Assembly (NCBI GenBank): GCA_038064515.1
Contig: JBBTSY010000004.1
Span: forward strand, 96,585 to 160,584
Length of the DNA: 64,000 nucleotides
DNA from: Patescibacteria group bacterium
Lineage (GTDB): Bacteria > Patescibacteriota > Minisyncoccia > 2-02-FULL-40-12 > GWA2-44-9
Direction of reading: 5' to 3'
Under the pieces are notes generated by a model. That model did no database searches and had not been told where the DNA came from. It saw only the letters and a program-made list of their open reading frames with translations. This document shows positions 35,490-56,505 of this stretch, piece by piece. The position numbers and the translations under genes were made by a program. Numbering within the stretch: the stretch's first letter is position 1; the number at the start of each line of letters is the position of its first letter.

Positions 35490-35542
35490 ATAGATATCTC
35501 CTAAATTATTACCTCGGATAGTATGTTAATTTTAAGCAAACG

Positions 35543-37470: not shown

Positions 37471-37523
37471 GACTTGCGTTGCTATTCAATCCAATACAGC
37501 ACATCATAAGCGAATAACGAAGG

Positions 37524-38195: not shown

Positions 38196-38199
38196 GAAA

Positions 38200-39378: not shown

Positions 39379-39379
39379 C

Positions 39380-39994
39380 TTATTCAGTAACGTAGAAGCA
39401 AATCTGGAGGCCAAACAGATTGGGCCACCAATCTCGCAAAGGCTTTCTTCCGTTGGATGATTTAATTCTTTTGACCTTAAACCCCAGCATATTAATTGTC
39501 CTTTCAAAATCCTTTACCGACCAATACCGCAAATGCTCTTTGGGAGCTATCGCCCACTGCTTAGGAAATTTCCCCAAAAGCAATTCTAATCGGAATTTCC
39601 AATATGCCGTATTGGGGATAGAAACCATAACTCCTTTTTTGGCAATTCTCATCGCATCGGCCAATACCTCTTCGGAGTTTACGATATGCTCCAAAAATTC
39701 GGACATAATAATATAATCAAAGCTCTTATCGGGAAAATCAATTGTTTCATCTATGGCTAAGTAGCGAGTTTTGAGTCCTCTTTTTTCGGCTATCTCTAGT
39801 GCCGCTTTCGAAATATCGCATCCGGTATAATCCACTCCATTTTTCTGCACCAAAAACTCCCCAAAAGACCCGTCACCACAGCCAATATCCAAGACACTGG
39901 AACCATTCTCTATCCACTCTGAAAAAATGTTATACCGCGGACGCGATCCGGACTTACCTCTTATCTGCCAATATTCTTCGTAAAAATTTTTCAC
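39380..39994 (-). CDS. SAM-dependent methyltransferase.
   Basis: VLDIGCGDGSFGEFL. Confidence 0.6.
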   Translation of the reverse strand: MKNFYEEYWQIRGKSGSRPRYNIFSEWIENGSSVLDIGCGDGSFGEFLVQKNGVDYTGCDISKAALEIAEKRGLKTRYLAIDETIDFPDKSFDYIIMSEFLEHIVNSEEVLADAMRIAKKGVMVSIPNTAYWKFRLELLLGKFPKQWAIAPKEHLRYWSVKDFERTINMLGFKVKRIKSSNGRKPLRDWWPNLFGLQICFYVTE

Positions 39995-39997
39995 GGT

Positions 39998-41038
39998 TCA
40001 CAATAATTTTTCACCTATCTGCTTGAGCTCTCTGCCCAATATTTCAGGGGTGGCAAATCTTTTGAATTTATTATATGCGTTATCGGCCAAGCTTTCTCTT
40101 AATCCCGGGTTGTTTTTTAATTTTAGTATTGCCGAAGCAAGATTTTCTGGATTTGATTGAATAAGAATCATATCACCTTCATTAAACAATTCCCTTATTG
40201 CCGGCGTGTCGGCCGTAATAATAGGCTTCCTCATTGCCGCGTATTCATATACTTTATTGGGTATTACTCTATTAGTCTTGGCTGTTTGACCGAAAACGCC
40301 CAGGCAAATATTCCCTTGATTTATATACTCGGGCAATTTACCATATTCTACCCGATTTATAAAATTAACATTCTTTATTTCCAAGTCGCCAGCTAATTTT
40401 TTTATTTCTGGATAGGTTTGCCCATCGCCAAGAATATTGAATTTGATTTCATCGTTCTCAAGAAGTTTAGCGGCTTTTATTATACAATCTATGCCCTGGA
40501 GAGGTATAAACGAGCCGTGAAAGTGAACGGCGAATGCGGAATTATTGCGCCCCTCTCTTGGATGAAAAACTTTTTCATCGGTTCCGACAAAAACTCTCCT
40601 GAACTTATCATTTTTGATTCTAAATTCTTTTGCGGCATAGCTAATATGCTCGTTGGTATCGAATAATACACTATCGGCCAAACGCATTGATAGCCAGTCC
40701 AAAAACCAGTAGTAGTGCGCCAAAAAGCTGCCGGGAATAATAATCTTGCGATCATATACATTTGAATCATATAGCGATATAAATGCGTCAAATATAATGG
40801 GTTTTGAAGTAATAAGCCATGCAAACGGTACGATGATCTGCCCCAGAAATCCCACTACCATGACATCATAATCACCCCGAACCTGCCAATGCTTGCGGAA
40901 CAACCGGATGAACTTCAAAATGCCAGGCGAATTATCCTGACACTCGATAATTTCTACACCGTTCTGGCGAAGACCGCTCATAAGGACACGGTTACGTGCA
41001 TATAACGGATCGTACATGCCAAAATAAAGAACTCTCAT
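39998..41038 (-). CDS. GT4 glycosyltransferase.
   Basis: GT-B layout; …VYEYAAMRKPIITAD…. Confidence 0.6.
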   Translation of the reverse strand: MRVLYFGMYDPLYARNRVLMSGLRQNGVEIIECQDNSPGILKFIRLFRKHWQVRGDYDVMVVGFLGQIIVPFAWLITSKPIIFDAFISLYDSNVYDRKIIIPGSFLAHYYWFLDWLSMRLADSVLFDTNEHISYAAKEFRIKNDKFRRVFVGTDEKVFHPREGRNNSAFAVHFHGSFIPLQGIDCIIKAAKLLENDEIKFNILGDGQTYPEIKKLAGDLEIKNVNFINRVEYGKLPEYINQGNICLGVFGQTAKTNRVIPNKVYEYAAMRKPIITADTPAIRELFNEGDMILIQSNPENLASAILKLKNNPGLRESLADNAYNKFKRFATPEILGRELKQIGEKLL

Positions 41039-42081
41039 GGGAATAGATTAAGGATGCGTTTTATGACTTGAGGAATGTTATGCCTTTTGGCATTTTGCCG
41101 AAGAGCTTCACTTATAGCCTCCTTGGCGTTATTATCCAGCGCAACAAGATGTTGTATCTTTGAAACAAGATCGGCTACATCGCCATGAGAGAATAATAAT
41201 TGATCAGCGTATTGCCCGAAATCAGATTTAAATGCGGGATTTGATGTTAAAGTCAAGCAACCTGCCGCCATGGACTCTAGCACCACTTTATCTAGCCCTC
41301 CACGCGGCGTAAGGTTTACCGTAATATGCGCCTGGCGATATATATCAGGCAGTTTATTGTACGGCATAACGCCGGTGAATTCTATAAGATCTTCAATGTT
41401 TAATGTACGCACAAGATTTTTTAAAGACATTAGATAGCTCTCCTCCTCCTTTCTGCCGATCTGACCAATGATTCGAATATGCAAAGGCATTATCTCTCGC
41501 AATTGTGTAGCGGCACGAATTAATGTTTCTAAATTTTTAATAGGCGAGATGCGCCCTACGCTGATAATCTCCCAGCGTTCTGGAGTATTCCAGCTTCTCT
41601 GGCTCGAGAATGCTTCGATATCAATACCATGCCCGGTCTCTATAATTTTTTTACTTGCGATCGACAAGCTTTCCTTCAACGCCGTGACAATTCGATAACA
41701 AAGCTTCTCTGCGATTCGCAATCGCAACGTTACTGCCCGATGCAGATACCAGAAAATAATTCTTTTCCTAAAAAGCATTGCAACCGGCCAAGTAGCAATA
41801 ACAAATACAGGTGCCATGTGCGCAAAAATTCCATTACTCGCAGGTATCACTTTGAAAAGATAATAATAAAATCGAAAAAATTGGGTAAGCTTTGAAGTCC
41901 CGTATTCTCTTCCAAGAGAATACACGGTTACATTACTAGGTAAATCGTAATTGCCTGCCTTGAGGGTTATAACAGAAACCCTCTCAACTTGATGTGCCAT
42001 CTCTCGCAACCACGATACGAAAAATCCCAACAGATCTTCGTTGGAATCCACTTTCTGGGTTATGACAATGAGATGCTTCAT
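41035..42081 (-). CDS. GT4 glycosyltransferase.
   Basis: …GGLDKVVLESMAAGCLTLTS…. Confidence 0.6.
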   Translation of the reverse strand: MKHLIVITQKVDSNEDLLGFFVSWLREMAHQVERVSVITLKAGNYDLPSNVTVYSLGREYGTSKLTQFFRFYYYLFKVIPASNGIFAHMAPVFVIATWPVAMLFRKRIIFWYLHRAVTLRLRIAEKLCYRIVTALKESLSIASKKIIETGHGIDIEAFSSQRSWNTPERWEIISVGRISPIKNLETLIRAATQLREIMPLHIRIIGQIGRKEEESYLMSLKNLVRTLNIEDLIEFTGVMPYNKLPDIYRQAHITVNLTPRGGLDKVVLESMAAGCLTLTSNPAFKSDFGQYADQLLFSHGDVADLVSKIQHLVALDNNAKEAISEALRQNAKRHNIPQVIKRILNLFP

Positions 42082-43175
42082 AGAAGAGATCGAATGCCTT
42101 CGGCATATGCTTGAATACTTTTTACTCGCTCAAACTGTGAGGCAATCACTAAACCCTGATCGCGGAGGCGTTGGTAATATTCTGGATTGCTGAGCAGTTT
42201 ATCTATGCCTTCTTTAATATCATGTGCATTCCACCCCACAACATACCCCGATTCGCCATGAACGATAACGTCGTGCACGATCCCTACGGGCGTTGCAATG
42301 ACGGGAACGCCACATGCCATCGCTTCCAGCACGACACGCGGGCCACCTTCATTGTATGATGGCATAATTAAAATCCTTGAACGATTCATAACATGGGCAA
42401 TTTCTTGAGAGTTAGCGGCCCAGCCGTGAAGTTGAATACGGTTTTGGAGCTGATATTTTTCAATATACTTTTCGATGCGCGCCCGAGCTGGACCCTCTCC
42501 CACAATGTACGCTCTGCCGGAGAGCTGACGTACGGCATCAAGAAATAGGAAAACGCCCTTATTATCGACAAGCCGAGCCACAAAAAGGTAGTCGATATCT
42601 TTGGTGATATCTCGAAGAGTGAATACTTCAAGATCAATGTAGAAAGCCGGGATGTACACAATCTTGTTCTCGGGAACTCCGCCAGAAATCAGAAATCGGG
42701 GAGTCTGGGTACGGTTGATCACCCTAATTTTTGTGGCGGGCTTAGCATCGAACCGGATAAGAGCTTTCGTAAGAAATCGGTATATCAGCTCTTTAACATT
42801 GCCTGCTTTAGGGTATCCCGCGATGTGCATTATTTCAAGCAGGTATGGTATCCCAATTTTTCGGTGGAGTAGCCACGCACCTATGCCATTATAGAACGGC
42901 GGATACTCGTGAACGGTCATTACGTCAAATGTCTGCTTTCGGTGAAGCTGTAGCCCTTTTTTGAGAATGTACAGAGGTTGTAGGATAAGCGGCCAGGGCG
43001 ACGAATGGATGTAGACATTGCCAAAGAGTACCTGGGACACGCTCATGCCGATAGACGGAGTAATCACATCAATCCGCTCCCAATGTTTATGGAATTCTTC
43101 CAGAGTATTGCAAAATGGTCCGCGGCGGCCCCGAGCAATGGCGCGATCTCCGCTAATCATGAGAAGTCTAGACAT
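42078..43175 (-). CDS. GT4 glycosyltransferase.
   Basis: …NEGGPRVVLEAMACGVPVIATPVG…. Confidence 0.65.
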   Translation of the reverse strand: MSRLLMISGDRAIARGRRGPFCNTLEEFHKHWERIDVITPSIGMSVSQVLFGNVYIHSSPWPLILQPLYILKKGLQLHRKQTFDVMTVHEYPPFYNGIGAWLLHRKIGIPYLLEIMHIAGYPKAGNVKELIYRFLTKALIRFDAKPATKIRVINRTQTPRFLISGGVPENKIVYIPAFYIDLEVFTLRDITKDIDYLFVARLVDNKGVFLFLDAVRQLSGRAYIVGEGPARARIEKYIEKYQLQNRIQLHGWAANSQEIAHVMNRSRILIMPSYNEGGPRVVLEAMACGVPVIATPVGIVHDVIVHGESGYVVGWNAHDIKEGIDKLLSNPEYYQRLRDQGLVIASQFERVKSIQAYAEGIRSLL

Positions 43176-43226
43176 AGTATTAATTTTGAATGATGAATTT
43201 AGAATTTCGAATCAATGACTGAATTT

Positions 43227-43616
43227 TCAATTTTCAAACTTTTTTGATCTTGATGAGCTAATGATTCTACCAAAAATTAAAACTAGCTCTCCACACTCCT
43301 GCTTCAAAGCTTGCATCGATGCAAGCTGGTTATCGTAGAAGTCCAGCATCCTAAGCCAATGCTTTGTTTCTTGACATTCTTTCTTACAGATAGATATCTT
43401 GTTAATAAAATCTTTCTTTGAAGATGCGGCATTTGCTTCCATATAGTTGGCTCCGATACTAGTACCAGACCTGATAATTTGGTTGATGAGTGGCCCAGAA
43501 ATATTATTTACCTTCATGCTCTTACATAAACTAATAATATTCTGCCCAAATATAGCCGTCCTCTCTTCTAGGTCATAAATTCGTTTTTTGTCTTCATTCA
43601 TTCTAATTTTATTCAA
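43227..43616 (-). CDS. Four-helix-bundle protein (the family known from 23S rRNA intervening sequences).
   Basis: …IRSGTSIGANYMEANAASSKKDFINKISICKKECQETKHWLRM… matches the diagnostic motif of that family. Confidence 0.65.
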   Translation of the reverse strand: MNKIRMNEDKKRIYDLEERTAIFGQNIISLCKSMKVNNISGPLINQIIRSGTSIGANYMEANAASSKKDFINKISICKKECQETKHWLRMLDFYDNQLASMQALKQECGELVLIFGRIISSSRSKKFEN

Positions 43617-43625
43617 AATTTATAA

Positions 43626-44786
43626 TTATAAATTCGAAATTAATAAGGCAGTTGTCTCATTTTCCATTTTAGTTACATTTAATTTCCGGAGCGTATTGCT
43701 TCCTTCTTCAACAAATTTTTCTCGGATGTCCGGCATCGCCCATAGCGTTTTAATGGCTTCGATGAGATTGAATTCGTCGTTGTATTTTACCAAGAAACCA
43801 TTTTCGCCCTGCTGAATAATTTCTCGATTCCCGCCTACTGCTGTGGTGATAATAGGAACTCGAGCGGCCATAACTTCTAATAGCTGGTGCGAGAAACCTT
43901 CATAACCGGTATTAAGGACGAATAAATCGGCGGCCGCGAGGTACGTGGCAAGCTCTTCGCTTCGCTTCTTCCCCACTAGATAAACTTTCCGATCAAGGCC
44001 CAGGTTTTTTACCATCGCCTGGAGAATCTGAAATTCAGGGCCATCACCGATAATAACCAGCCTAAAGAATTGATTTACCCGCAGTAGTTGAGGCATTATC
44101 TTGATGAGCATGCGGAATCCTTTCCAGGGAACCATGCGACCCGCTGATACGATTATGTTACCTGAAATGCCGATCTGCTTGCGCGCTTCCTCTTTCGATA
44201 GTGGAGAGGGTTCAAATTCAACTCCGTTATAAATCACGGTGATGGCATCCTTGCTAACGCCCCAGCCTCGCACAATTTCCGAAAGATATATCGAAGGAAC
44301 TATGATACGAGCGGCATGTCCGCACACCCATATCTGAATCCGGTGAATAATGCCAATCCATCCTCGGCGCGGTTCTTTCTGGAAATCATTGATTAGAAGA
44401 TTAGTTTTTCCTGACTGAATTGCCGTCTCCCAGGCACGATCGCCTACGATTTTCACGATATATTTCTTTTTGAAAAATCGAGATGCCACGAGTGCCGTTG
44501 GCCCCGCGTTAATGGCATTTAATGCGAAAATTAGATCATGATTTTTCGCCGCAAAGAAAACTTTTATCGCGTAGATTGCGTGCCGCACCGGCCATGGCCA
44601 CTTCTTCCAAATTCTGACTACGGCAAATGGCAGGGATTTGTCTCCCTGATCGCTCCACACCGATGAATAGGTGATAACCGTCACACCGTGTGCCTGGGCA
44701 AGTTTCTTACCAATTATTTGAGCATACGATGCCGGCCCGCCAATCTCGGGACTAAAAATCCCTGTTATAATAAGAAGCTTCTTCAT
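43626..44786 (-). CDS. GT4 glycosyltransferase.
   Basis: …GYEGFSHQLLEVMAARVPIITT…. Confidence 0.65.
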   Translation of the reverse strand: MKKLLIITGIFSPEIGGPASYAQIIGKKLAQAHGVTVITYSSVWSDQGDKSLPFAVVRIWKKWPWPVRHAIYAIKVFFAAKNHDLIFALNAINAGPTALVASRFFKKKYIVKIVGDRAWETAIQSGKTNLLINDFQKEPRRGWIGIIHRIQIWVCGHAARIIVPSIYLSEIVRGWGVSKDAITVIYNGVEFEPSPLSKEEARKQIGISGNIIVSAGRMVPWKGFRMLIKIMPQLLRVNQFFRLVIIGDGPEFQILQAMVKNLGLDRKVYLVGKKRSEELATYLAAADLFVLNTGYEGFSHQLLEVMAARVPIITTAVGGNREIIQQGENGFLVKYNDEFNLIEAIKTLWAMPDIREKFVEEGSNTLRKLNVTKMENETTALLISNL

Positions 44787-45067
44787 CCTGTAGTAGAATT
44801 TTGATTAATTTTTCGATTATATAAATAATCTTTAATTCTAGATTTAATTAAACGTCCGCCTTGGGTAGTCTTTAGATATTTCTCTCTTCGCTTAGCGTCA
44901 CTTTCTTCTAGGCAAGCTTCGTAATAAATTAGTTTCCACGGCATATACCTTTTGGTCGAAAAATTCAATCCTCGATTATGTTCTAATAGGCGTTGCTTTA
45001 AGTCGGAGGTGAAACCAGTATATAGTTCGCCATTCATTTCACTTTGGATAATGTAGGTATAGAACAT
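44783..45067 (-). CDS. GIY-YIG nuclease-family small protein; second copy in the window.
   Basis: MFYTYIIQSEMNGELYTGFTSDLKQRLLEHN. Confidence 0.65.
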   Translation of the reverse strand: MFYTYIIQSEMNGELYTGFTSDLKQRLLEHNRGLNFSTKRYMPWKLIYYEACLEESDAKRREKYLKTTQGGRLIKSRIKDYLYNRKINQNSTTG

Positions 45068-45094
45068 AATCAGATCAAAATTTCACTACGGGAT

Positions 45095-46231
45095 TCATGA
45101 TACATGATCATAGACTGACCGCATTGCCGTGGCAACCTGGTTCCAATGGTAGCGCTGTGAAACAAGTATTCGAGCTGTCGAGATAATGTGACTCCTAAGC
45201 GGCTCGTCTTCAAATACTATTTTTATGGCTCGGACGATATCGCTAGGACTGTGAGGATCGCATACCATTCCGGTTTCCCGATCTTTTAGGAAATCGGGGA
45301 TGCCGCCCACATCCGAACCAACCACTGGAACGCCGGCCGCCATTGCTTCCAAAAAAGCATTGCCAAGCCCTTCCGAGTAGGAAGGGCGGACAAATGCGTC
45401 GGCAACAGCTAAGTATCGAGGAAGATGATCATAAACTATTTCTCCGACCCAGCGGATATCGTTTTTAACCCCAAGGTTCTCTGCTAATCGTATAAGATCT
45501 TCTCTAAGCGGCCCCGCTCCTGCGAGAATAAGCACTGCTGGTCTGGATTGTTTCAGCTCGGCAAACGCGCGGATAAGATTATCGATGCCGTTTTTTTGAA
45601 TAAGGCGAGATACGGAAATAAGAACCGATATTCCAAAGGGAATTCCAAGCTGTTGTTTTAGTTTTAATTGTTCTTCATCAGAAACTTTCTCGGTAAAAAG
45701 CTCGATATCGACACCGTTAGGAATGACGTTTACTAAAAGCGATGGGCGCACGGAATGTATGAATCGCTCTAGATAAGTACTGATAGCCGTAGCATAATCA
45801 GCCCGAGCAATTATAAGCCTGCGAAAAAATCGAACTGCCAGAGATTGGGCATTCAGGTCCTTGCCTTCCTGCAGGGTAAGGATAAAAGGAATGGGCTTGA
45901 ACCACCGAAGAAGCCAAGCGGCGCTTGCGCCGTACGAGGCCTGATAAGCATGACTAGCATGATAGCGGCCTGCGGCTGTTAACTGGTATCCCCGAAAAAA
46001 ACCTAAAATCGGAAACAAGTATTTATCCAAAAAGGAACCGAAACCGACCCGATGGATCGTGTTGTTGGTTTGACGTTCGTCGTGTAGATCGTTTCGATAC
46101 CGAGGAGTGATAATATCAAAAAACATATCGGGTAATCGACTTGCAATTTGCTCAATAGCGATTTCGGAACCTCCCACAAACGGCCGGTAGGCAGTTGAAA
46201 AAATAAGGATTTTCTTTGATTTTTCGGGCAT
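45095..46231 (-). CDS. GT4 glycosyltransferase.
   Basis: …SEGLGNAFLEAMAAGVPVVGSDVGG…. Confidence 0.65.
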   Translation of the reverse strand: MPEKSKKILIFSTAYRPFVGGSEIAIEQIASRLPDMFFDIITPRYRNDLHDERQTNNTIHRVGFGSFLDKYLFPILGFFRGYQLTAAGRYHASHAYQASYGASAAWLLRWFKPIPFILTLQEGKDLNAQSLAVRFFRRLIIARADYATAISTYLERFIHSVRPSLLVNVIPNGVDIELFTEKVSDEEQLKLKQQLGIPFGISVLISVSRLIQKNGIDNLIRAFAELKQSRPAVLILAGAGPLREDLIRLAENLGVKNDIRWVGEIVYDHLPRYLAVADAFVRPSYSEGLGNAFLEAMAAGVPVVGSDVGGIPDFLKDRETGMVCDPHSPSDIVRAIKIVFEDEPLRSHIISTARILVSQRYHWNQVATAMRSVYDHVS

Positions 46232-46254
46232 TGGATGTTAGTATATTGCCACAA

Positions 46255-47478
46255 ATGAAGCCTCAAAGCAACCAGTCAGAAACATTCAAACTACCGCGTA
46301 AAAAGCGGGTATTATTCGTTATCACCCAGTCGGAGATGGGCGGCGCTCAACAGTTCCTTGCTCAACTCATTAACCGCCTCAATCCCCAGGAATTCGATTG
46401 TTCGGTCGTGGTCGGGGTGGATGGGGACCATAGCCTCAAATCTATCTTACCCGATATTGTGCCGTATCGAATCGCCCGGCACCTTCGCCGCGATCCAGAT
46501 ATTATTAGTGACATCAGATCCTTGTTTGAACTGCGGGCCATTTTCAAAGAAGAAAGGCCGGATATTATCTTTCTCAACAGCTCGAAAGCGGGATTTAATG
46601 GAAGCTGGGCCGCCAGCGCTCTGCCATTTCGTCTAACGGGAGTACGCGTTATTTATCGCATCGGCGGCTGGCAGTTCAACGATCCGCTTCCTCGCTGGAA
46701 ACAATTATTCTATATCTTTCTTGAAAAGGTAAGCGCCCGCTGGAAAGATGTAATCATCGTAAACAACCAAAGAGATTTAGCCGATGCTCAACGACTCAAC
46801 ATCAAGCCGCGCTACAGTCTTAAACTCATACATAACGGCATCACTCCGTATTTGGAGATCCCCGATAAGGAAACGGCCCGAGTCCAGTTGATCAGCGATG
46901 CCGCAAAATCAGCGCTCAATGGCCAAGCCGCACTTTTCCAAACACCCTATATCGTAGGGACAATCGCGAATTTCTATGCCACAAAAGGATTGTCGGTTCT
47001 CGTCGATGCCGCCGCCAAGGTACGCAGTGATGCGGTGTTTATAATAATCGGTGACGGCGAATTACGCCCCGCCCTGGAACAGCAAATCACCAATTTAGGA
47101 TTGACCAAAAAAGTATTCCTTTTAGGCAAGAAGCCTCGAGCAACTGATTATATCTCCGGCTTTGATCTATTTGTCCTGCCTTCATTGAAAGAAGGATTTC
47201 CTTGGACACTCCTTGAAGCCATAGCCGCCAAAATCCCCGTTATCGCCGCGCGGACAGGAGCCGTGCCGGAGATTATCGAGTCGGGAAGGAACGGCATTAT
47301 CGTGCCTCCTGGCGATGCCGAAAAACTAGCTCAAGCGATTGATGAACTTATAGAGAATCCCCGCCTCGGCCAAGAAATGGCGATCCAAGCCCACCAGAAT
47401 CTGATCAGAAATTTCAGCCTTCATGGCATGATTCAGCGTTATGAACACCTTCTTAGAAGCCAGAGCCCATCTCGATAA
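46255..47478 (+). CDS. GT4 glycosyltransferase. The internal Met at 46255 is taken as the start; the ORF track start at 46216 would overlap the divergent upstream gene.
   Basis: …KEGFPWTLLEAIAAKIPVIAARTGAVPEII…. Confidence 0.65.
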   Translation: MKPQSNQSETFKLPRKKRVLFVITQSEMGGAQQFLAQLINRLNPQEFDCSVVVGVDGDHSLKSILPDIVPYRIARHLRRDPDIISDIRSLFELRAIFKEERPDIIFLNSSKAGFNGSWAASALPFRLTGVRVIYRIGGWQFNDPLPRWKQLFYIFLEKVSARWKDVIIVNNQRDLADAQRLNIKPRYSLKLIHNGITPYLEIPDKETARVQLISDAAKSALNGQAALFQTPYIVGTIANFYATKGLSVLVDAAAKVRSDAVFIIIGDGELRPALEQQITNLGLTKKVFLLGKKPRATDYISGFDLFVLPSLKEGFPWTLLEAIAAKIPVIAARTGAVPEIIESGRNGIIVPPGDAEKLAQAIDELIENPRLGQEMAIQAHQNLIRNFSLHGMIQRYEHLLRSQSPSR

Positions 47479-48074: not shown

Positions 48075-49688
48075 TTATTTATCTACCGTATAGGCCGAAT
48101 GGATCCAGCCGTCTTGGCCCTTGAAATTGATTTTGAACCAGACACCGATTTGACCAGTTTTTTCATAAACATCGGTCGGTACCATCTTCCCGATAATCAC
48201 ACCGTCGAGAGAAGGAGTTTTCCTGATATTTAGCCAGTTCACGCCTTTCTTAACCCCGAGCGAGCTTTTGACACCAAGCCTAGCAAATTCAGAACCGGAG
48301 ATAACCTGCACATCCGCCCAATTATAGCCGGCGGCGCTAAATTCTTCAATGGTTTTTACCCACGTTAATGCGCCATTTGCTCCTTGCACATATACCTTAG
48401 GGTCATTTGCTTTTCGGAAAAGTGTTGCGCTTGTCGCGGACAAGGGAGAAATTTTTAATTCTGCAAATTCTGGACCTGATATCACCTGTACATCTGCCCA
48501 ATTGTAACCGGCAACATTGAATTCCTCCAAAGTCCTGACCCACGTTAATGCGCCGTCGCTTCCTTGAACGTATACTTTTGGATCGTTTACTTTTCTGAAA
48601 AGCTTAACCGTCTCGGGTGTTGGAGTCGGTGATGGAGTCGGACTCGGTGTTGGTGATGGCGAAAGAGTAACTATCGGTGTCGGAGTAGGCACTGGAGCAT
48701 CTCCGCCGGAAACATTACTTATCGGATTTATAACAGCAAGTGTTTGACTGTCGCTTCCCGTGGTCCTATCAGCGTACGTTCCAGTTGTTACCCGTAATGT
48801 TGATACGCCTGTATATTGAGCGAGAACCCCGGTATTTGCTAATGGTACGGGGCAATACCAATAACCTTCATTCGCGCTTGTTCCTATAGTACAAGTAGTT
48901 CCATAACTATCCCCGGCCAAAACAGTTCCTGATGTTAATTTGGAAGTTTCAAAAGTGCCGCCAGTTTGCCATACCTGTATTTTATGGCCAAATAGGAGGC
49001 CGCTTTCATTCAGAGTGCTATTGTCGGCAGTTCCGAAATCAACTGATTGGGATGCCGTAGCAGAAACAGTCAGGGCCGAAGATGTTCTATTTACATAACC
49101 ATTAGCGCCTCCGGTAACGGTCCCGCCACTGGTTGAGGCGCCGATATATCTCTTGCCGCCACTATACGACTGTGAAGCAACTGTCCCGCTGTATGCAGCC
49201 GAAGCCGTAGTGCCGTTTAATGTTAAAGCTGTGTTTAATTCATCAGTAACCCCGTTCACTAAAATCGTATAATCCATGCTCGCTCTGGTGGTAAAGGTAA
49301 TATTACTGCCCGCACCCGATACCGTGTCTGTTACCAATCTTGAGACCCAGCCGTTAAAAGATGCGGTGGCCGTTATGGCTTCACCGGCATCGCAGCCCGC
49401 CCGATTAGAAGCATTTTCTGCTGAGCTTGAGGCAATTTTTATGATGCCGTCCAGGAGATTTGTGCTTTCTGAAGCTGTACCATCTGTAACGACGCCCTCA
49501 CCCGAACCATTACATTTATAGGTAATGGTTGCCCCGCTTGAGCCATAATAAGCGGGAACATCAAGTTCGGTATCGATCCGGAAAAAATAGAAATCTTCGG
49601 CAAAAGCAGATCCCGGGACAGAGACGAAAAAAAACACAACCAGAAGCAAAACTGACAACAGTTTGTTCAATTTCATTACTCTTATCAT
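48075..49688 (-). CDS. Secreted surface protein. Signal peptide, Gly/Thr/Ser-rich β-region, Pro-Thr-Ser linker, two tandem NDPKVY…GYNWADVQVISG modules and a C-terminal SH3b-like domain.
   Basis: Linker PTPIVTLSPSPTPSPTPSPTPTPE. Modules FRKVNDPKVYVQGSDGALTWVRT… and FRKANDPKVYVQGANGALTWVKT…. C-terminus …VNWLNIRKTPSLDGVIIGKMVPTDVYEKTGQIGVWFKI…. Confidence 0.55.
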   Translation of the reverse strand: MIRVMKLNKLLSVLLLVVFFFVSVPGSAFAEDFYFFRIDTELDVPAYYGSSGATITYKCNGSGEGVVTDGTASESTNLLDGIIKIASSSAENASNRAGCDAGEAITATASFNGWVSRLVTDTVSGAGSNITFTTRASMDYTILVNGVTDELNTALTLNGTTASAAYSGTVASQSYSGGKRYIGASTSGGTVTGGANGYVNRTSSALTVSATASQSVDFGTADNSTLNESGLLFGHKIQVWQTGGTFETSKLTSGTVLAGDSYGTTCTIGTSANEGYWYCPVPLANTGVLAQYTGVSTLRVTTGTYADRTTGSDSQTLAVINPISNVSGGDAPVPTPTPIVTLSPSPTPSPTPSPTPTPETVKLFRKVNDPKVYVQGSDGALTWVRTLEEFNVAGYNWADVQVISGPEFAELKISPLSATSATLFRKANDPKVYVQGANGALTWVKTIEEFSAAGYNWADVQVISGSEFARLGVKSSLGVKKGVNWLNIRKTPSLDGVIIGKMVPTDVYEKTGQIGVWFKINFKGQDGWIHSAYTVDK

Positions 49689-49720
49689 ATCATTTTTTTT
49701 AAAAAGGGGCTTGTTGATAA

Positions 49721-50227
49721 CTATTCCAGATCAAGTTGACCCAGCTCCATAGATCCACAAAACATGGTAAGTTGGGCAGGAAGTTTCGTACTGCTAAGAG
49801 TAACCAGCAACCAGCCATAGGCATCAAGAGAATATCCTTTACTGGCGATTTTTAAAATTCTCGGCTCGGCTGACAAAGTATTATCGAGCATAATCTGCGT
49901 ATTGTTTGGATAAGCAACCTGCGATGGCGCTATGGATGTACAGTTTTCATCAAGAACTAAGCGTCTATTTATCGGTTTTAAAATCTCTGACCAATATTTA
50001 TAACTATTAATCTCTTTGATTATCAAAGTCGGTATTGGTTTAACGCTGTTTTTGGGCAAGTTGGGTGTTTTGCTTGGGGTTGGTGTCGGAGCAGATGTTG
50101 GGCTTGTTGAAGTCGCCGTATCAATAACGTTTATGTCTTTGTCGTCACGACTCACCCAAAAAATTGCTGAACCAACAATAGCGACAACGACCACTGAATA
50201 AGTGTAGATGTTTTTATCTATTTTCAT
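49721..50227 (-). CDS. Small secreted or membrane-anchored hypothetical protein (N-terminal TM, Pro/Thr linker, globular C-terminus).
   Basis: MKIDKNIYTYSVVVVAIVGSAIFWV…TSAPTPTPSKTP…. Confidence 0.4.
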   Translation of the reverse strand: MKIDKNIYTYSVVVVAIVGSAIFWVSRDDKDINVIDTATSTSPTSAPTPTPSKTPNLPKNSVKPIPTLIIKEINSYKYWSEILKPINRRLVLDENCTSIAPSQVAYPNNTQIMLDNTLSAEPRILKIASKGYSLDAYGWLLVTLSSTKLPAQLTMFCGSMELGQLDLE

Positions 50228-50244
50228 AATAAATTAATAATGGT

Positions 50245-51303
50245 TTAGCGGGTATATATGGGCACCTGATTAATCGAGGTATAATCTGAACCCTTAGCAT
50301 ACCAGTTAAACTCGTTAGAGTTTATACAGAATACTTTTTTGAAGAAATCGGGGTCATCGGCTACGGCTTGAGCTCCCGAAACGTTGACCCAATGAAGTAT
50401 GCCTGCATCCTCGCCTGTTGTTTCAATGCCATAAACCTTAGGGTCATTGGTTTCACAATTCCTGAAAAGACCAGAGGTTACAAGGATGATCCCGGTTGAT
50501 GACACAACATTTTTAACTTGAGCAAATCCGCCTAAATGGCCATAGAAACTAAATATGACTGGATTCAGAAATAATCTCTTATAACCCCAATCATTAACAA
50601 TATAGATGTCGGGGTTGCCCGAACCAACAGCGCTAATTGTGTTTCCATCACTTAAACCTAAAGCATTCAGACCGGTAAATCCGAGCGAAATTGGGTTCGG
50701 CAGGATCGTTGGAGCAGGAGTTTCCGTCGGAGACGGATCGGCCGACGGCTGGGGTGTCGGGGCGGGCGTAGGAGTCGCTACGACTCCAGGCAAAGTCAAA
50801 GTATTGCCATATATCGGAACGCCTATTAAGGTCGGCGCAACCAGAGTTGGAAAAGTGAATCCACTGAAACCAAGACGGACATTACCGGCCGCGGAAGACG
50901 AAAGACTCGCTTTGACTAGATATGTCTTGGGTGTGCCGCCATTTCCTATAATAACATCCCCAAATCGGATTAAGTTGGGATTTGCGCTCTGGTTGGGATA
51001 CGTACCTTTCAGAGTTGAGGTAGAAGTAACGTCATATATATAAATGTTGGTAAAATTACTCAAACCACCCGATACATCCGTATTCAAATAAATACCGTTC
51101 AAATACACATCGCCAACTGACGCGGTTAAAGTAATTCGCGCCACATCAACATATTGGGCGCCAGCCGATAAACTTTGAGCCAGAGGCGTTTCGTTATGCA
51201 ATGTCGCAGTCAGCGCCGGCACTTCCTGGGCAGATGCGTATGGCGATAAGCTCGAAAAGGAGCTGACCAATAACAGGGTCAATATCAAATATTTTATATT
51301 CAT
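50245..51303 (-). CDS. Secreted protein with a ~150-aa C-terminal module that is paralogous to the N-terminal module of the giant protein at 51410-54790.
   Basis: Signal peptide. C-terminal …DIYIVNDWGYKRLFLNPVIFSFYGHLGG…FRNCETNDPKVYGIETTGEDAGILHWVN…NEFNWYAKGSDYTS… versus the giant protein's …DIYIVNAPGYKRLFLNPVIFNFYGHLGG…FRNCETNDPKVYGVETTGEDTGILHWVN…. Confidence 0.55.
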   Translation of the reverse strand: MNIKYLILTLLLVSSFSSLSPYASAQEVPALTATLHNETPLAQSLSAGAQYVDVARITLTASVGDVYLNGIYLNTDVSGGLSNFTNIYIYDVTSTSTLKGTYPNQSANPNLIRFGDVIIGNGGTPKTYLVKASLSSSAAGNVRLGFSGFTFPTLVAPTLIGVPIYGNTLTLPGVVATPTPAPTPQPSADPSPTETPAPTILPNPISLGFTGLNALGLSDGNTISAVGSGNPDIYIVNDWGYKRLFLNPVIFSFYGHLGGFAQVKNVVSSTGIILVTSGLFRNCETNDPKVYGIETTGEDAGILHWVNVSGAQAVADDPDFFKKVFCINSNEFNWYAKGSDYTSINQVPIYTR

Positions 51304-51334
51304 ACTTCATATTATACCAGATACAAGCCAAACC

Positions 51335-51358
51335 AAAAACCCCCGAAAGGGGGTTTTT
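51335..51358. terminator. Intrinsic terminator AAAAACCCCC-GAAA-GGGGGTTTTT (bidirectional), immediately downstream of the giant surface-protein gene.
   Basis: 5-bp G/C stem with a GAAA tetraloop between A5 and T5 tracts. Confidence 0.6.
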
Positions 51359-51409
51359 GGTTTCGAGAAACGCCATCGCGCGAATCCCGAGATTGACTAG
51401 GTAACTATG

Positions 51410-54400
51410 TTACTTCGTCAAAGTTTGACTCTCTGCCAATGTCTTTAGCATACCATCAGTAAACCAGTCATCCGTTGTAGTGGCATGGCTAGCTGCTGAT
51501 GAATCGGTCCAGACAAAGGAGGCGCCAGAATTTCGCTGAACTGTTGAATCATCCGTAGTCACCGTTGTTCCCTTTGGATTGGTGATGCTTGTGGTTACGC
51601 TTTCATTAGTCGCAAGCGTACCACCTACGGTTGTCTTCAATTCAAGGATGATAGGGGTTCCCGCAGAAATCACACGCTCGACAGCAAAGGTGAACTCTAC
51701 GCGAGTAGTAGTACCAATATCGCTGACGCTGGCGGTGCTAGAACCAGAGAAAGAGGTGATATCAATGCCATTCTCATACAACTTCCAGCCTGCCGCTGCA
51801 GGACCGAATGTCCCGGCTAGTGAAGTTGAAGATACGGTGAAAGTGATATTATTCCATCCCACCTGACTACCGGTTGCGCTGACTTCTGTCTTGAATAATG
51901 TCTGGGTGCCAGCGCTTAAGGCCGTAGTAGACAAAGCTTTGTTAGCAAAGGTCGGATAACCTTTGACAACATAGTTGGCGTTACCGGTAAAGCTTGCCGG
52001 AGCATAACCGTTTTCAGTGGTTATGGCACCCGCGCTATCTCGGAACTTCAAGCCGTCCAATTGGACAGTTACATTGCCGGCAGTATCGTTTGCTCCGACA
52101 CCGACAGCAGATGTTACCACATCCACAGTGAAGGTCTTAGTACCCTCTGATTGAGGCATAAGTAAGTCAAGACCGGTGAATGAAGCAGAAGACGTTGACG
52201 AACTAACCACAGCTGAACCAATAACCGTTCCGACACTGTTCTTCAATTGAAGATTAGCAACCGCACCCGAAGACGATGCCAACGTGCTTGAAAGATCAAC
52301 ATAGACCTCATCAAGATAGTAGTCATCATACGTCGGCGTAAGGGTGAACTGATAACCAGTTACCGTTGAACCACCATTTACGAATCGGGCCGATGGAAGC
52401 GAACCATTGGCTTTCGTCAATGCACCGGTCTGGGAAGTTATCGTTTGACCGGCAACCACACTGGATGTGGTTGAAGTGCTGGAACCCGCAGTGGTGCCAG
52501 TTGCGCTAAACGCAAGTCGGACTGCATCCAGAGCGGTAATACCGGCCTCAACATTTGCCCAAACCTCAATCTGATAGGTCTTGTTGGCAGGCAATGAGAA
52601 GTTTACCGCGAAGCTTGTGCTCGCGCTTTCGGACATAATGGCCTTGACCGGCGAAGTGTACACAAGAGAACCCGCGTCGTTCCAAACTTTGATGTATGAA
52701 TCATCTAATTCACCACCATCAAAGGTAACACCGGTTACCAACTGCGGCATTATGTCAATTGAACTGACATTAACACTTTCCGATGAAGCGGCGGTTAAGG
52801 TGAAGTGACCAACTTTAACATTGTTCTTCGGATCAACAACCGACTGGTTGGCATAACCGGTATATTTACCGGCCGTGAGTGAACCAATTTTAATGGTTAA
52901 GGATGTTCCAGTCTTTGCGGCGCTTGAAACATAATCCAATGTCGTCAAACGCTGGACATTTGATGAGCCGACAGCAAAGTTTGCGGTAAAGGTCTGGTCA
53001 GCCGCGACATCATTTGTACCGCTGGCATCAAAGATGTCAGCTCGGATTTCCACAATTCTCGGTGTTCCCGGAGTAACAATCAATGAGGAACCCAAGGAGA
53101 CTTGTGCGTAGGCAGTACTGTTTGATGCGGCTGGCGAACTATCTTCCCAAAGGGTTGTTGTAGAACCAACCTGTACGCCATCAGCGAAGATAGCGGCATT
53201 GCGAAGAGCTAACAACGCGGTCTGACCGCTACTGTTATCAATACGAAGATTTTCAACTTTCATCTTCTCACCGGCGGCCTTGAACTCAAATCGAGACAAG
53301 ACAACGCCAGAAGCGCCTTTTACAACATTGCCGGAAGGTGAATCAGTCGTTTTGGTGATAGTTAACGTGCCTGAAGCAATATTTTGGGCAGTAGAGCTTA
53401 CCGGGAATGTGCCGGTTGCCAATACTGAAGCGCCGGCATACTGGGAATCAACGGTCCAGATATCGGATTTCTGCCTCAAAGAAAGGTAGAAATTCTTGCC
53501 CGAACCACCAATTATATCAACCAATACTTTGAATGTTCGGCTTCCGGTTTCAAGCTTGACCGGGCTAGCCGTCATATCAAACACGATATAGCCGTTAGCA
53601 TCGGCTTGAGCTACGGTGGAACCCTGCTGAACTCCATCAATCAAAAGACGGAAATTCTGGAGGTCCCCTGCCGCTACTGAACCGATAACTCTATACTGAA
53701 CTGATTTCAGCCAAACATATCTGGTGCCGATAGTTACAGCATCATTCCAAGCGACAAAATCACTTGCGGGAACCGGAGCTCCATCTGAAGACGGGGTTAC
53801 ACTCGCAGATAACGCTGTCGTGGCTTGGGTGGCAGTGGCAAGGGTATGCATATTGCCAGAAATGCTATAAGCAACACCGTTCACACTAGTGAGCTGAACA
53901 CCAATGGTCTCGCCAGCCGTTCCGTCAACATCGGCCAAAACCGAGATGACCTTGGAGCCGGATACTGTGAATAAGCCAACGGCATCGTTGAACGAAACAA
54001 CACCGCTTGAAACGGTAGCCGCATCGGTCAAACGCTTTACACCGTCATACAGATAGACATTTGTTAATGTCGCATCCGCTGATACGCCAATTCTGTTTAA
54101 TTTCACATTAGTAACGGCTCCATTACCGCCAAACATGAATTCAGCTAAGTTGTATCTGGCCTGTCCGTCCACAATTGTTCCGGAAGCTGGGTTTGAAGAA
54201 GCCAAGCTTACCGATAACGGGCCAGTTGGAGGAGGCGTGCCTCGTACATAGTTTGGTACTTGGCTTACTGACGTGTAGTCAGCGCCCTTGGCGTACCAGT
54301 TGAATTCGTTGTTGTTGATGCAGAACACCTTATTAAAGAAGTTTGCATCATCAGCAACTGCTTGCGCTCCAGAGGTGTTTACCCAGTGGAGGATACCGGT

Positions 54401-54790
54401 GTCTTCACCGGTGGTTTCTACACCATAGACTTTAGGATCGTTGGTTTCACAATTTCGGAACAAACCCGAAGTTGGGAACGCATCGCGGGTCGTAGCGGCT
54501 ACGTTTTTCACAGCGGGGAAACCGCCGAGATGGCCGTAGAAGTTGAAAATGACTGGGTTCAAGAATAATCTCTTGTAGCCCGGAGCATTTACAATGTAGA
54601 TATCTGGATCGGACGATCCAGCTGCTGAAATCGTGTTTCCTTCTTGGAGACCGAAGTCAGCTGGGAATGCGGCAGATGCTTTAGGAGCATAAGCGGCGAA
54701 TCCGGCTAGCGACAACATGGTCGTTAGCGCTGTGAGAACAGCAAAGGTCTTTTTCAAAACCTGGAGCCGTCCCTTGGATACATTACTCAT
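51410..54790 (-). CDS. Giant (1126 aa) secreted cell-surface protein (S-layer / adhesin-like). Signal peptide, N-terminal shared module, then long Ser/Thr/Gly/Ala/Val-rich β-repeats.
   Basis: MSNVSKGRLQVLKKTFAVLTALTTMLSLAGFAAYAPKASA. Composition bias is strong and no catalytic motifs are evident. Confidence 0.55.
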   Translation of the reverse strand: MSNVSKGRLQVLKKTFAVLTALTTMLSLAGFAAYAPKASAAFPADFGLQEGNTISAAGSSDPDIYIVNAPGYKRLFLNPVIFNFYGHLGGFPAVKNVAATTRDAFPTSGLFRNCETNDPKVYGVETTGEDTGILHWVNTSGAQAVADDANFFNKVFCINNNEFNWYAKGADYTSVSQVPNYVRGTPPPTGPLSVSLASSNPASGTIVDGQARYNLAEFMFGGNGAVTNVKLNRIGVSADATLTNVYLYDGVKRLTDAATVSSGVVSFNDAVGLFTVSGSKVISVLADVDGTAGETIGVQLTSVNGVAYSISGNMHTLATATQATTALSASVTPSSDGAPVPASDFVAWNDAVTIGTRYVWLKSVQYRVIGSVAAGDLQNFRLLIDGVQQGSTVAQADANGYIVFDMTASPVKLETGSRTFKVLVDIIGGSGKNFYLSLRQKSDIWTVDSQYAGASVLATGTFPVSSTAQNIASGTLTITKTTDSPSGNVVKGASGVVLSRFEFKAAGEKMKVENLRIDNSSGQTALLALRNAAIFADGVQVGSTTTLWEDSSPAASNSTAYAQVSLGSSLIVTPGTPRIVEIRADIFDASGTNDVAADQTFTANFAVGSSNVQRLTTLDYVSSAAKTGTSLTIKIGSLTAGKYTGYANQSVVDPKNNVKVGHFTLTAASSESVNVSSIDIMPQLVTGVTFDGGELDDSYIKVWNDAGSLVYTSPVKAIMSESASTSFAVNFSLPANKTYQIEVWANVEAGITALDAVRLAFSATGTTAGSSTSTTSSVVAGQTITSQTGALTKANGSLPSARFVNGGSTVTGYQFTLTPTYDDYYLDEVYVDLSSTLASSSGAVANLQLKNSVGTVIGSAVVSSSTSSASFTGLDLLMPQSEGTKTFTVDVVTSAVGVGANDTAGNVTVQLDGLKFRDSAGAITTENGYAPASFTGNANYVVKGYPTFANKALSTTALSAGTQTLFKTEVSATGSQVGWNNITFTVSSTSLAGTFGPAAAGWKLYENGIDITSFSGSSTASVSDIGTTTRVEFTFAVERVISAGTPIILELKTTVGGTLATNESVTTSITNPKGTTVTTDDSTVQRNSGASFVWTDSSAASHATTTDDWFTDGMLKTLAESQTLTK

Positions 54791-55146
54791 TTTAATTTAG
54801 TTTATTTCTTTCCTGAACTGTATTACCACCAACCTTGCGGTAGGGATAAATCGACCAGCTATAGAAAAGAAGTTTTATTCTTTCTTTATTATTACTTCCT
54901 TATAACAACTTTCTTTCGCCCAGCCCTTACGTAAGGCTGGGGGTAGAACCTTGGTAAAGCTACCGCTAGGATTCGCTTAAAGCGAACTAGACCCATCATG
55001 TATTTGTTTCGACCAATACATTTGAGATGGTAGCTCTATCGACTTAAGATTCCAGCTATTAACAATTGGGAGAGACATCCTGTTATACAATCTTGTTTTC
55101 GTTTCAACCGTTATGGGAACATAAATTGTCAACGTTCTTTCCTGAA

Positions 55147-55210
55147 CCCCACACTCAGTTAGCGACAGCTATGCGACGGCTTGTTGAAAATATCACCAAC
55201 TGAGTGTGGG
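55147..55210. repeat. 14-bp perfect inverted repeat ccccacactcagtt…aactgagtgtgggg with a 36-nt loop. The arms resemble the arms of the conserved leader element at 5.5 kb and 59.3 kb.
   Basis: Seen directly. Lies in the 540-nt intergenic region upstream of the giant surface-protein gene. Confidence 0.4.
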
Positions 55211-55569
55211 GTGAACAACCTACCTCTTTGCAATTCGCTTCGATCACAGAGGGATAGATGGTCCATATCCTCTTAACTAGCAAAAAACAACCAATTATAC
55301 CTGGCTATCTACAAGGCTTTTATAGCTCCATTATTGTCATATTATTTCCTTTTGCCAACAACTTTATGGCGATACCTTTGGTTTATGACTTATGCCATGA
55401 ATCCTATCAAACCTGAACCCAAAGGTCAACTAACATGGCCTAAGTTTCATAACAGCTTCAGTGAGTACCAAAGCCTCATCCGTAACCTCACTACTGATTA
55501 TATTCCACGTCTTGCTAAGCAACAATAGCAAAATGTGGATAAAACCCGATAGGCGTTAATCAGAAAGAA

Positions 55570-56505
55570 CTACGGGGTAACCGAGTTTTTGAATTTGGGA
55601 GTACCGCGCAGAGGCTGGGGTGGATTACCAGCATCCATACCCGTCGTAATAAGACCAGTATTGGTGGCCCAGTTGGATGAGTCGGCACCAGGTAAAATAG
55701 CACTAATGCGCTCCATGGAGGCATACGACGGGTTACCTGTGGAGTCAGTCCCTGCAAACCAGCCTCCGAAGCAGGGGACAGAATCTATTATAACTCCCCC
55801 GGTATCGCGTAACATGAGGTTTTCGCCATCAGGCAGATTCTTGAGGCCAGATCCCCCAAATGAGCCATGTATATTGGCCGGAATGTTGGAGATTGTTGTA
55901 TCGTCGGTTCGTTCAATTAAATAATATGCTCCTGCGGCAATGCTACCAGTTAGGGTGATAATTCTAGTCTCGTTTTCAAACAACGCCCATCCATCAAGAT
56001 TAATCGCTACACTTCCAGTATTGTAGAGTTCAATCCATTCGTCGCCGCTGTAGTTCGCAGTCCCCGCCCAAGCAATTTCATTGATGACGACATGTGCTAA
56101 ACCAATGGCTGGTGTTGGAGTTGGTGACACCGGAGGCGGACCAGCCTCCGGCTGGGGGGTTAGGATCGAAGATGGGATGGGGGTACGGGAAGGGGTTGGC
56201 GTAATAAGTGTTGAGATACGCGGTATTACCGCAGGGCTTGGTGACATTGTTGGTGACACGATGGTGACACTTGGTGACATTGTTGGTGACAATAAATTTG
56301 TCACCAAGGAACTTGGTGACAAAATCGGTGTCACTAAGGTTGTCACCAAGGAATTTTCTTTCAGTGGAGTAGAAGTACCTACCGCCTCCGGCAATGAACC
56401 AGCTAAAAACGAAGGTCTATCTTCAAAAAGAAAGAGCGTTACGAGAGAAAGCGTAATAATGGCAATTCCCCAGCTGATGACATGGTTATGGGTGAATTGG
56501 AGCAT
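55570..56505 (-). CDS. Secreted or membrane-anchored lamin-tail-domain (LTD) protein with a Pro/Ser/Thr-rich linker.
   Basis: …VVINEIAWAGTANYSGDEWIELYNTGSVAINLDGWALFEN… shows the LTD signature. N-terminal TM and PSPxxP linker. Confidence 0.55.
   Translation of the reverse strand: MLQFTHNHVISWGIAIITLSLVTLFLFEDRPSFLAGSLPEAVGTSTPLKENSLVTTLVTPILSPSSLVTNLLSPTMSPSVTIVSPTMSPSPAVIPRISTLITPTPSRTPIPSSILTPQPEAGPPPVSPTPTPAIGLAHVVINEIAWAGTANYSGDEWIELYNTGSVAINLDGWALFENETRIITLTGSIAAGAYYLIERTDDTTISNIPANIHGSFGGSGLKNLPDGENLMLRDTGGVIIDSVPCFGGWFAGTDSTGNPSYASMERISAILPGADSSNWATNTGLITTGMDAGNPPQPLRGTPKFKNSVTP

Follow-up and report, generated by a model that had tools for sequence, protein, structure and literature searches.

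The closest described counterparts of the locus analyzed here, a cluster of surface-protein genes in a 64,000-nucleotide stretch of DNA from a Patescibacteria group bacterium (contig JBBTSY010000004.1, positions 96,585 to 160,584; this whole stretch is called the window below), are systems that anchor surface layers (S-layers) to the cell. In the SLH system, known from the Bacillus anthracis proteins Sap and EA1, a terminal, repeated anchor of ~55 aa, paired with a pyruvylated secondary cell-wall polymer (SCWP), is common to the S-layer and many secreted proteins, shows higher conservation than the lattice part and can be swapped with other anchors. The SLH fold is helical. In the CWB2/PSII system of Clostridioides difficile (SlpA and the Cwp family), the S-layer gene is clustered with genes of paralogous anchored proteins beside a wall-glycan locus, and the anchor is again common to a family of surface proteins. 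The csg protein of the archaeon Haloferax volcanii is held by a lipid anchor.

Patescibacteria (CPR) account for much of the diversity of bacteria, most have not been brought into culture, and their envelope is known mainly from cryo-electron microscopy images. A putative S-layer protein with six Ig-like assembly domains has been predicted in this group, with examples of 1131-1274 aa in the supplement of the preprint (bioRxiv 10.1101/2024.05.28.596244). That preprint, the SymProFold study, names A0A1G2EN61 (1131 aa), A0A0G1WWP5 and GMX59286.1 as members of the six-Ig family, predicts p6 pyramids whose tip is formed by the C-terminus, mentions a shorter three-domain form in Yanofskybacterium and, for two of the three Paceibacteria species referred to below, places homologs of the S-layer protein (SLP) among the highly expressed secreted proteins. 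It also supplies the likeness to H. volcanii csg, namely six Ig-like domains in a left-handed spiral. Additionally, in three Paceibacteria the top five secreted proteins by expression included proteins with peptidoglycan-binding and Ig-like domains (Kuroda et al., PMC10936435), and what appears to be an S-layer has been observed on cells of this kind.

In the window, four co-directional genes on the minus strand (48075-54790) encode a giant protein of 1126 aa and the proteins P352, P168 and P537, with a glycan-biosynthesis locus on one flank. We regard this region, with moderate confidence, as the S-layer locus of a Yanofskybacteria-like member of the Patescibacteria. A repeat module that the giant has in common with P352, P537 and a more distant protein, P593, is probably a lineage-specific, non-covalent wall anchor of S-layer and S-layer-associated proteins.

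A repeat module in four proteins of the window

The giant (51410..54790) starts with a Sec-type signal peptide, read from the sequence (aa 1-40, ending in ...APKASA and followed by AFPADF; 54671..54790). The signal peptide is followed by a module at aa 44-183 (54242..54661) that is made of two tandem alpha/beta repeats of ~55-60 aa: half A (54467-54649) and half B (54266-54466), the latter holding both Cys114 and Cys157. P352 (50245..51303) has its module at the C-terminus (50248-50661). P352 aa 215-352 and giant aa 46-183 are identical at 107 of 138 positions (78%, E 6e-74), as expected from the paralogy of these two termini that an earlier reading of the window, made from the sequence alone and called the sequence-only reading below, had proposed. 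P537 (48075..49688) contains two tandem repeats, aa 361-415 and aa 421-475 (48444-48608 and 48264-48428), with 40 of 55 residues identical, and after them a separate SH3b domain (aa 486-533, 48090-48233; Pfam SH3_3, E 1.4e-8). The sequence-only reading was thus right about two tandem modules and an SH3b domain in this protein, but its unit of ~45 aa has to be extended to ~55-60 aa.

The fourth carrier, P593 (13070..14851, minus strand), lies outside the cluster and, also as anticipated, ends in a diverged module, which is double (13073-13420): its aa 478-590 match giant aa 48-171 with 32% identity (E 2e-10), and each P537 repeat matches its last ~45 aa (E 5e-4). P168 contains no copy of the module, so that three of the four clustered proteins, and not all four as had been suggested, have it in common. 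A module hidden Markov model (HMM) run over all six reading frames of the window found no further copy beyond these four known carriers.

In the sequence-only reading, the ~150-aa and ~45-aa modules were treated as separate entities, and this distinction is not upheld. The AlphaFold model of the module (pLDDT 95.1, pTM 0.87) is a compact alpha/beta pair of repeats in which the order beta-beta-beta-alpha-beta-alpha occurs twice. Moreover, an iterative HMM (inclusion E<1e-3; local set of 5809 proteins and open reading frames) that was seeded with only the two P537 repeats recovered both halves of the module in the giant and in P352, as well as the last repeat of P593. The bridging sequences were the divergent S-layer homologs P0220-P0225 and open reading frames adjoining S-layer genes. 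Narrow-family hhalign comparisons, using profiles of close homologs, linked half A neither to half B nor to the P537 repeats; the kinship of the two halves is visible only through divergent intermediates, with the usual risk of iterative searches. A further homolog search with the P537 repeats returned only four short fragments. The consensus of the hand-picked alignment A4 is xxLxRxxGDPKVYxxxxxGxKxWxxxxExFNxxGxxWxxVxxVxxxEF. The N-terminal triple repeat of the giant homolog P0229 matches the repeat family with an hhalign probability of 83% (E 9.5e-6) and belongs, by this profile similarity, to the same superfamily. On these profile comparisons, the ~140-aa module is best described as two copies of one ~55-60-aa repeat of the same family as the P537 repeats.

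Distribution of the module and its passengers

A full HMMER scan of 1.84 billion representatives detected the double module in 1424 clusters (50% identity), 1077 of them at E<=1e-10. Among 135 representatives its position is terminal in 132: in 90 of them the start of the module falls in the first ~110 residues, in 42 its end is at most 15 residues from the C-terminus, and in three it lies elsewhere. The passenger domains identified in 57 representatives are diverse and include Kre9_KNH Ig-like (9), PG_binding_1 (8), fn3 (6) and CarboxypepD_reg (4), along with Kazal, PKD, Peptidase_S8, Laminin_G_3 and SH3_3. Several carriers can be present in one genome, as in the window with its four and in the relative L075 with three within a few kb.

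All the named source organisms of the module are Patescibacteria, with the exception of L073. This 3.3-kb module-bearing contig (JAZDFP010000095.1) is part of a "Planctomycetota" metagenome-assembled genome (MAG) and was probably mis-binned. It is important to mention that Yanofskybacteria-like contigs are labeled "Saccharibacteria" in many TPA assemblies; these labels are probably binning or labeling errors and not occurrences outside the lineage.

Comparison of the module with known domains and folds

The module-bearing proteins and 28 isolated repeats were compared with Pfam-A (2025 copy) and NCBIfam, and no match to the module was obtained, even at E<=1 to 10. By profile HMM the module is not a member of SLH (PF00395), CWB2 (PF04122), choline-binding repeats (PF01473), LysM, PG_binding_1-4 or SH3b. 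Sequence profiles against the PDB gave no genuine match either. Designed propellers (SAKe, Cake) and 3hxj came up in that search through summed sub-threshold matches to the "VYAIxxDGxxxW" hairpin of every blade; a propeller identity was rejected because no single stretch passes the threshold and because the AlphaFold fold is not a propeller. Foldseek of the module against the PDB returned nothing at E<=0.001, and against BFVD only weak single-repeat matches to unnamed actinophage proteins. The check proposed by the sequence-only reading, a match to SLH, choline-binding repeats or another known domain, thus gave none in Pfam, NCBIfam, PDB profiles or Foldseek.

The top two Foldseek matches in the PDB, which are not significant, were EccB3 and EccB1 of type VII secretion (E 0.27 and 0.45, probability 0.15; PDB 3x3n, 6sgy; PF05108). 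EccB repeats are similar in having ~55 aa with four beta-strands and two helices, and EccB is a weakly PlyCB-like envelope protein with a suspected, not demonstrated, peptidoglycan binding (PMC4769845). At E 0.27-0.45 and with no link between sequence profiles, we take EccB as a lead only. The module also differs from SLH in having no sequence match (Pfam SLH), two repeats and not three, and a predicted alpha/beta fold with four strands and two helices per repeat. It has no sequence or fold match to CWB2, and here the anchor and the lattice part are apparently one chain, while the link to the glycan genes is positional only. Judging from these searches, the repeat seems to form a domain family not described so far, one that would work like SLH or CWB2 without belonging to either.

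The giant as a putative S-layer protein

MEK7589190.1, a protein of a "Patescibacteria group bacterium" MAG, has the same sequence as the giant, whose closest named relatives come from Candidatus Yanofskybacteria, Paceibacterota and Parcubacteria. We found 689 homologs, and most full-length ones among the matches listed have ~1090-1190 aa, at identities from 81% down to ~36%. In the AlphaFold model (pLDDT 85.8), a helix of low pLDDT at aa 6-29 corresponds to the signal region, the module spans aa 43-180, a low-confidence linker follows at aa 183-189, and aa 192-1126 are all beta. The protein has a pI of 4.9, and its 937-aa body contains no Cys and 25.6% Ser+Thr. After the body (aa 190-1126, 51413..54223) was cut into six segments, most pairs of segments proved homologous (hhalign probability 75-97%), and the body is thus best read as six tandem copies of one beta-sandwich (Ig-like) domain, D1 to D6. 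No solved relative of the giant was found by the sequence-profile search, and Foldseek of the body returned only generic Ig-domain arrays (PrgB, integrin legs, pilins). Its translation shows no LPXTG motif and no visible lipobox or C-terminal membrane helix. One source names a homolog "LPXTG cell wall anchor protein"; sortase anchoring was nevertheless rejected on the missing motif.

These features resemble the six-Ig family of the same phylum (bioRxiv 10.1101/2024.05.28.596244): common to both are a signal peptide, ~1100-1270 aa, six tandem Ig-like domains, numerous homologs across classes and relatives among the most highly expressed secreted proteins. The giant is secreted, has 1126 aa and an AxA-type signal peptide and is of patescibacterial source, and AlphaFold, hhalign and Foldseek agree on six tandem Ig-like domains. 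Additionally, its homologs P0233 and P0238 combine a peptidoglycan-binding domain (PGBD) with Ig-like domains, which is the make-up of the highly expressed proteins of Kuroda et al. Judged by architecture and these indirect links, the giant fits as a new member of the family, an identity that the sequence-only reading had missed in describing it as a large surface protein. From the published prediction for the family we infer that the giant would form a lattice. The preprint has no account of the present module and presents the lattice as predicted, not solved; the highly expressed members in PMC10936435 carry peptidoglycan-binding domains. The csg protein, unlike the giant, is archaeal and has no detectable sequence relationship to it in our searches.

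Evidence for anchoring and alternative explanations

Comparison of the giant with its homologs allowed us to see what can take the place of the module. Homologs with ~83% coverage differ from the giant at the N-terminus, where the module would sit. In P0233 and P0238 this position is taken by a coiled coil and PG_binding_1 (34.6 bits in P0233, against a Pfam cutoff of 23; sub-threshold in P0238), and in P0229 by the related triple repeat. The module is also better conserved than the body: over 60 homologs the mean identity to the giant is 71% in the module and 49% in the body, the module is ahead in 51 of the 60, and identity in the body declines steadily from 57% in D1 to 42% in D6. In many genomes the module is retained at 70-85% while the body is recognizable in the first ~300 aa only, at 25-30%. 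S-layer proteins in general have a conserved anchor and a divergent exposed part (bioRxiv 10.1101/2025.04.02.646754). The N-terminal module would be at the wall side, given that in the published lattice model the tip is formed by the C-terminus.

The closest non-identical homolog of the giant, P0122, shows the reverse of the usual pattern, with a body 84% identical and a module just 70% identical (alignment A2). This hints at recombination or at an exchange of anchor modules between paralogs.

As in known non-covalent anchors (SLH, CWB2, SH3b, LysM, PG_binding_1), the module is terminal on many passengers, interchangeable with PG_binding_1 and conserved above its passenger. Terminal position, diverse passengers, replacement by PG_binding_1 and conservation are comparative, not biochemical, evidence, taken from directly observed homologies, domain architectures, distribution, synteny and conservation patterns; wall binding and the nature of the ligand are inferred from them. 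Within that comparative frame, the lineage-specific wall or S-layer anchor that the sequence-only reading had offered as one possibility is the best-supported explanation, and the confinement to Patescibacteria that it implied was observed, apart from the contig L073. The giant would be exported by Sec, and its N-terminal double repeat would be held non-covalently by peptidoglycan or a wall glycopolymer. The six Ig-like domains would build the lattice, with those at the C-terminus, which vary most, on the outside. The ~55-aa repeat, usually paired, would serve as a portable address tag that keeps secreted proteins in the wall/S-layer compartment, and the proteins so tagged would include P352 (one S-layer-type domain plus anchor), P537 (anchor plus SH3b) and the HExxH protein P593.

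Several observations weigh against this interpretation. No solved or annotated structural relative of the module in the Foldseek search of the PDB backs wall binding, and the SLH-like N-terminus of another giant homolog, P0235, is below the Pfam threshold. The module, as distinct from the generic repeat, whose alignment was too degenerate for such a scan, was found in no phage genome or viral contig, whereas many true wall-binding domains occur in phage lysins. Moreover, PG_binding_1 (8 of the 57 representatives) or SH3b is often present in the same protein as the module, so the module may bind a non-peptidoglycan ligand or do something else entirely. As for the giant, its place in the six-Ig family is judged from architecture and indirect links, and the S-layer role of the family is itself a prediction (bioRxiv 10.1101/2024.05.28.596244).

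If the repeat were instead an outward-facing lectin or adhesin module that binds the host surface, the cluster would be a host-attachment apparatus, which was part of the sequence-only reading. The episymbiotic lifestyle of Patescibacteria fits this, as does the role in host attachment that Kuroda et al. (PMC10936435) propose for PGBD proteins of high expression; the partner domains of the module include the lectin-like Laminin_G_3, and PG_binding_1 or SH3b could anchor these proteins by themselves and leave the repeat another target. However, the module lies next to the signal peptide and, with the C-terminus at the outer tip in the published model, would face the cell; no other part of the protein is as well conserved, whereas parts in contact with a host are usually the most variable; and homologs carry PG_binding_1 in its place. 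We consider host binding unlikely and favor it less than an envelope role, the other half of that proposal. The adjacency of a glycan locus, which the sequence-only reading also noted, is real and conserved among relatives.

The replacement by PG_binding_1 points to the wall also when the repeat is viewed as a protein-protein docking or oligomerization domain, one that would fix accessory proteins to the foot of the S-layer lattice or link them with one another, in place of binding a wall polymer. Such a domain could explain why nearly the same module, at 78% identity within one genome, occurs on the S-layer protein and its neighbors, and the S-layer-type domain of P352 suggests co-assembly; the Foldseek searches of PDB and BFVD, which gave no match to a carbohydrate-binding fold, are in line with it as well. 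Yet the S-layer protein needs an anchor of its own and offers no other candidate, with no LPXTG and no visible lipobox or C-terminal membrane helix, and the module is found on more than 1000 very different passenger proteins. Docking therefore seems quite unlikely to us. Least probable of all, in our view, is that the giant forms no lattice and is a stalk-like fibrillar adhesin of Ig-like domains, with the module still acting as wall anchor. The generic Ig-domain strings among its Foldseek matches (PrgB, integrin legs, pilins) and the "LPXTG cell wall anchor protein" annotation of a homolog would agree with an adhesin, but the motif is missing, and six domains and ~1090-1190 aa are kept while identity falls from 81% to ~36%, whereas fibrillar adhesins usually vary in repeat number. 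The gene is also found at a single conserved locus, preceded by a long leader region, a lattice is predicted for proteins built in this way, and S-layers have been observed on cells of this kind. We thus retain the combination of a lattice-forming giant and a wall-binding module as the preferred interpretation.

Neighboring genes and the upstream gap

N-terminal hydrophobic, signal-like sequences were read from the translations of the giant, P352, P168, P537 and P593. In P352 the signal peptide is followed by a beta-sandwich domain (50779-51225), a Pro/Thr linker and the C-terminal module. Its N-terminal domain, whose origin had escaped the sequence-only reading, is homologous to the first beta-sandwich domain of the giant, D1 (hhalign probability 94%, E 9e-8), and also matches D5 (88%). 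By this homology P352 can be viewed as a one-domain "mini-SLP" with its anchor at the opposite end from that of the giant, and it could contribute to the lattice, or to a sub-lattice, as a minor constituent. Its orthologs lie directly downstream of the giant homolog in L001/L002, L005, L006, L007, L010, L012 and L066, and a Yanofskybacteria ortholog is 54% identical over the full length.

P537 consists of a signal peptide, an unassigned N-terminal region of ~300 aa that is unrelated to the S-layer domains by hhalign, a PT linker, the two repeats and SH3b. The P352 ortholog of L011 likewise has a C-terminus of repeat and SH3b. Replacement of the module by SH3b in such orthologs was considered and rejected: in L011, L034 and L066 the P352 or P537 orthologs keep one generic repeat before SH3b. 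Repeat(s) followed by SH3b thus make up a composite C-terminus that recurs.

P168 (49721..50227) is a small protein with a membrane anchor at its N-terminus, followed by a Pro/Thr linker and a domain of ~100 aa with two Cys, and it matches no Pfam or NCBIfam family. Syntenic orthologs with 56-61% identity are present in L005 (8292-8789), L007 (13397-13930), L010 (11729-12277) and L066 (3985-4569). P593 contains the motif HEFQH (aa 183-187, 14291-14305, minus strand), and its N-terminal part of ~470 aa matches no family in Pfam, NCBIfam or the PDB; an ortholog that also has the module is found at L080 (6433-8148). P593 may represent an undescribed family of secreted metallopeptidases.

The S-layer gene is preceded on its 5' side by a non-coding gap of 779 nt (54791..55569, minus strand), and a gap of ~500-850 nt recurs at this position in the relatives checked. 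The gap holds hairpin-forming inverted repeats and two short blocks, 55122-55178 and 55497-55543, for which a few relatives show 80-93% conservation; a promoter-like TTGTTG-17-TATAAT lies in the second. No Rfam family was found in the 779 nt. The gap is probably the promoter plus a long leader of the S-layer gene, and this leader may be structured and belong to a gene with very high expression.

The upstream neighbor (55570..56505, minus strand) encodes a secreted lamin-tail domain (LTD) protein of 311 aa (Pfam LTD, E 1e-13), whose position is kept in most loci. In many genomes LTD is part of a larger protein of 800-1380 aa (L003 3869-6493, L015, L023, L036 and others), and fusions of it to HHH_3 (ComEA-like DNA-binding) motifs occur in L003 and L004. 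Two genes 5' of the S-layer gene, most relatives retain a protein (216 aa in the window, 56723-57373) whose C-terminus is winged-helix-like; its orthologs have weak MarR/DeoR matches, and it is a candidate regulator of the locus.

Synteny and the glycan-biosynthesis locus

The order DUF5671, FKBP, HTH-like, LTD, gap, S-layer gene, P352, (P537), P168, GT4 was found in full or in part across ~80 loci examined, and the comparison with relatives that the sequence-only reading had proposed thus revealed a synteny recurring in dozens of MAGs. In close relatives, orthologs of P352, P537 and P168 stand between the S-layer gene and glycosyltransferase genes, and a glycosyltransferase cluster adjoins the S-layer gene in many relatives. 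In the window, the glycan locus (14916..47478, with no strand assigned; 14.9-47.5 kb) flanks the S-layer cluster and encodes an initiating Bac_transf enzyme, a 749-aa Wzy_C protein with tetratricopeptide repeats (TPRs), two Wzx-like flippases, NeuB, a CMP-sugar-type cytidylyltransferase, several methyltransferases, RmlD-like and RGP-like enzymes and ten GT4-type glycosyltransferases. This locus could make a wall polymer to which the module binds, in parallel to SLH with pyruvylated SCWP or CWB2 with PSII, or it could glycosylate the Ser/Thr-rich S-layer protein.

The NeuB and CTP_transf_3 cytidylyltransferase genes (23994-25007 and 30110-30919) imply, as predicted from sequence, a nonulosonic (sialic- or pseudaminic-like) acid in the envelope glycan. 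The GC content of the locus is mosaic, with 0.52 at 26-30 kb, 0.39-0.41 at 34-42 kb and ~0.45 elsewhere, which suggests horizontally exchanged glycosyltransferase cassettes.

Between the glycan locus and the S-layer cluster lies P122, a small TPR protein of 122 aa (47545-47913). In many relatives this position is occupied by a 590-670-aa protein with TPRs; the one in L034 has a PMT_2 (protein O-mannosyltransferase-like) domain, and another homolog is followed by a Wzy_C-TPR protein. In relatives, genes of large membrane proteins with C-terminal TPRs are often situated directly 3' of the S-layer gene, as in L034 (13010-14779, PMT_2/TMTC-like), L029 (4532-6352), L001 (13352-15322) and L084 (12731-14914, Wzy_C-type), and these proteins are candidate S-layer O-glycosyltransferases. 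The window has only the 122-aa TPR protein at this position, with the 749-aa Wzy_C-TPR gene (16312-18561) 30 kb away.

Implications for Patescibacteria

Swappable anchors on S-layer proteins and their associated proteins are established in Firmicutes, and the present case extends this principle without adding a new concept. More tentatively, and as a doubtful possibility drawn by analogy, this could be a third, Patescibacteria-specific S-layer anchoring system beside SLH/pyruvylated SCWP and CWB2/PSII, in which the repeat would recognize a lineage-specific wall glycopolymer that the neighboring, syntenic glycosyltransferase genes would produce. Nonulosonic acid might be part of this glycopolymer, given the NeuB and cytidylyltransferase genes. 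If this were true, the module would define the wall-associated proteome of these ultra-small symbionts, including the proteases and adhesins that they use on the host.

The gradient from conserved anchor to variable body would mark the exposed face that is seen by phages and hosts. A named and searchable anchor module, carried by more than 1400 clusters, would allow the proteome associated with the wall and the S-layer to be listed directly from genomes, and a fluorescent fusion of the module would provide a handle to label or capture these cells. In this way, the question of how the S-layer of CPR bacteria is attached would become directly testable.

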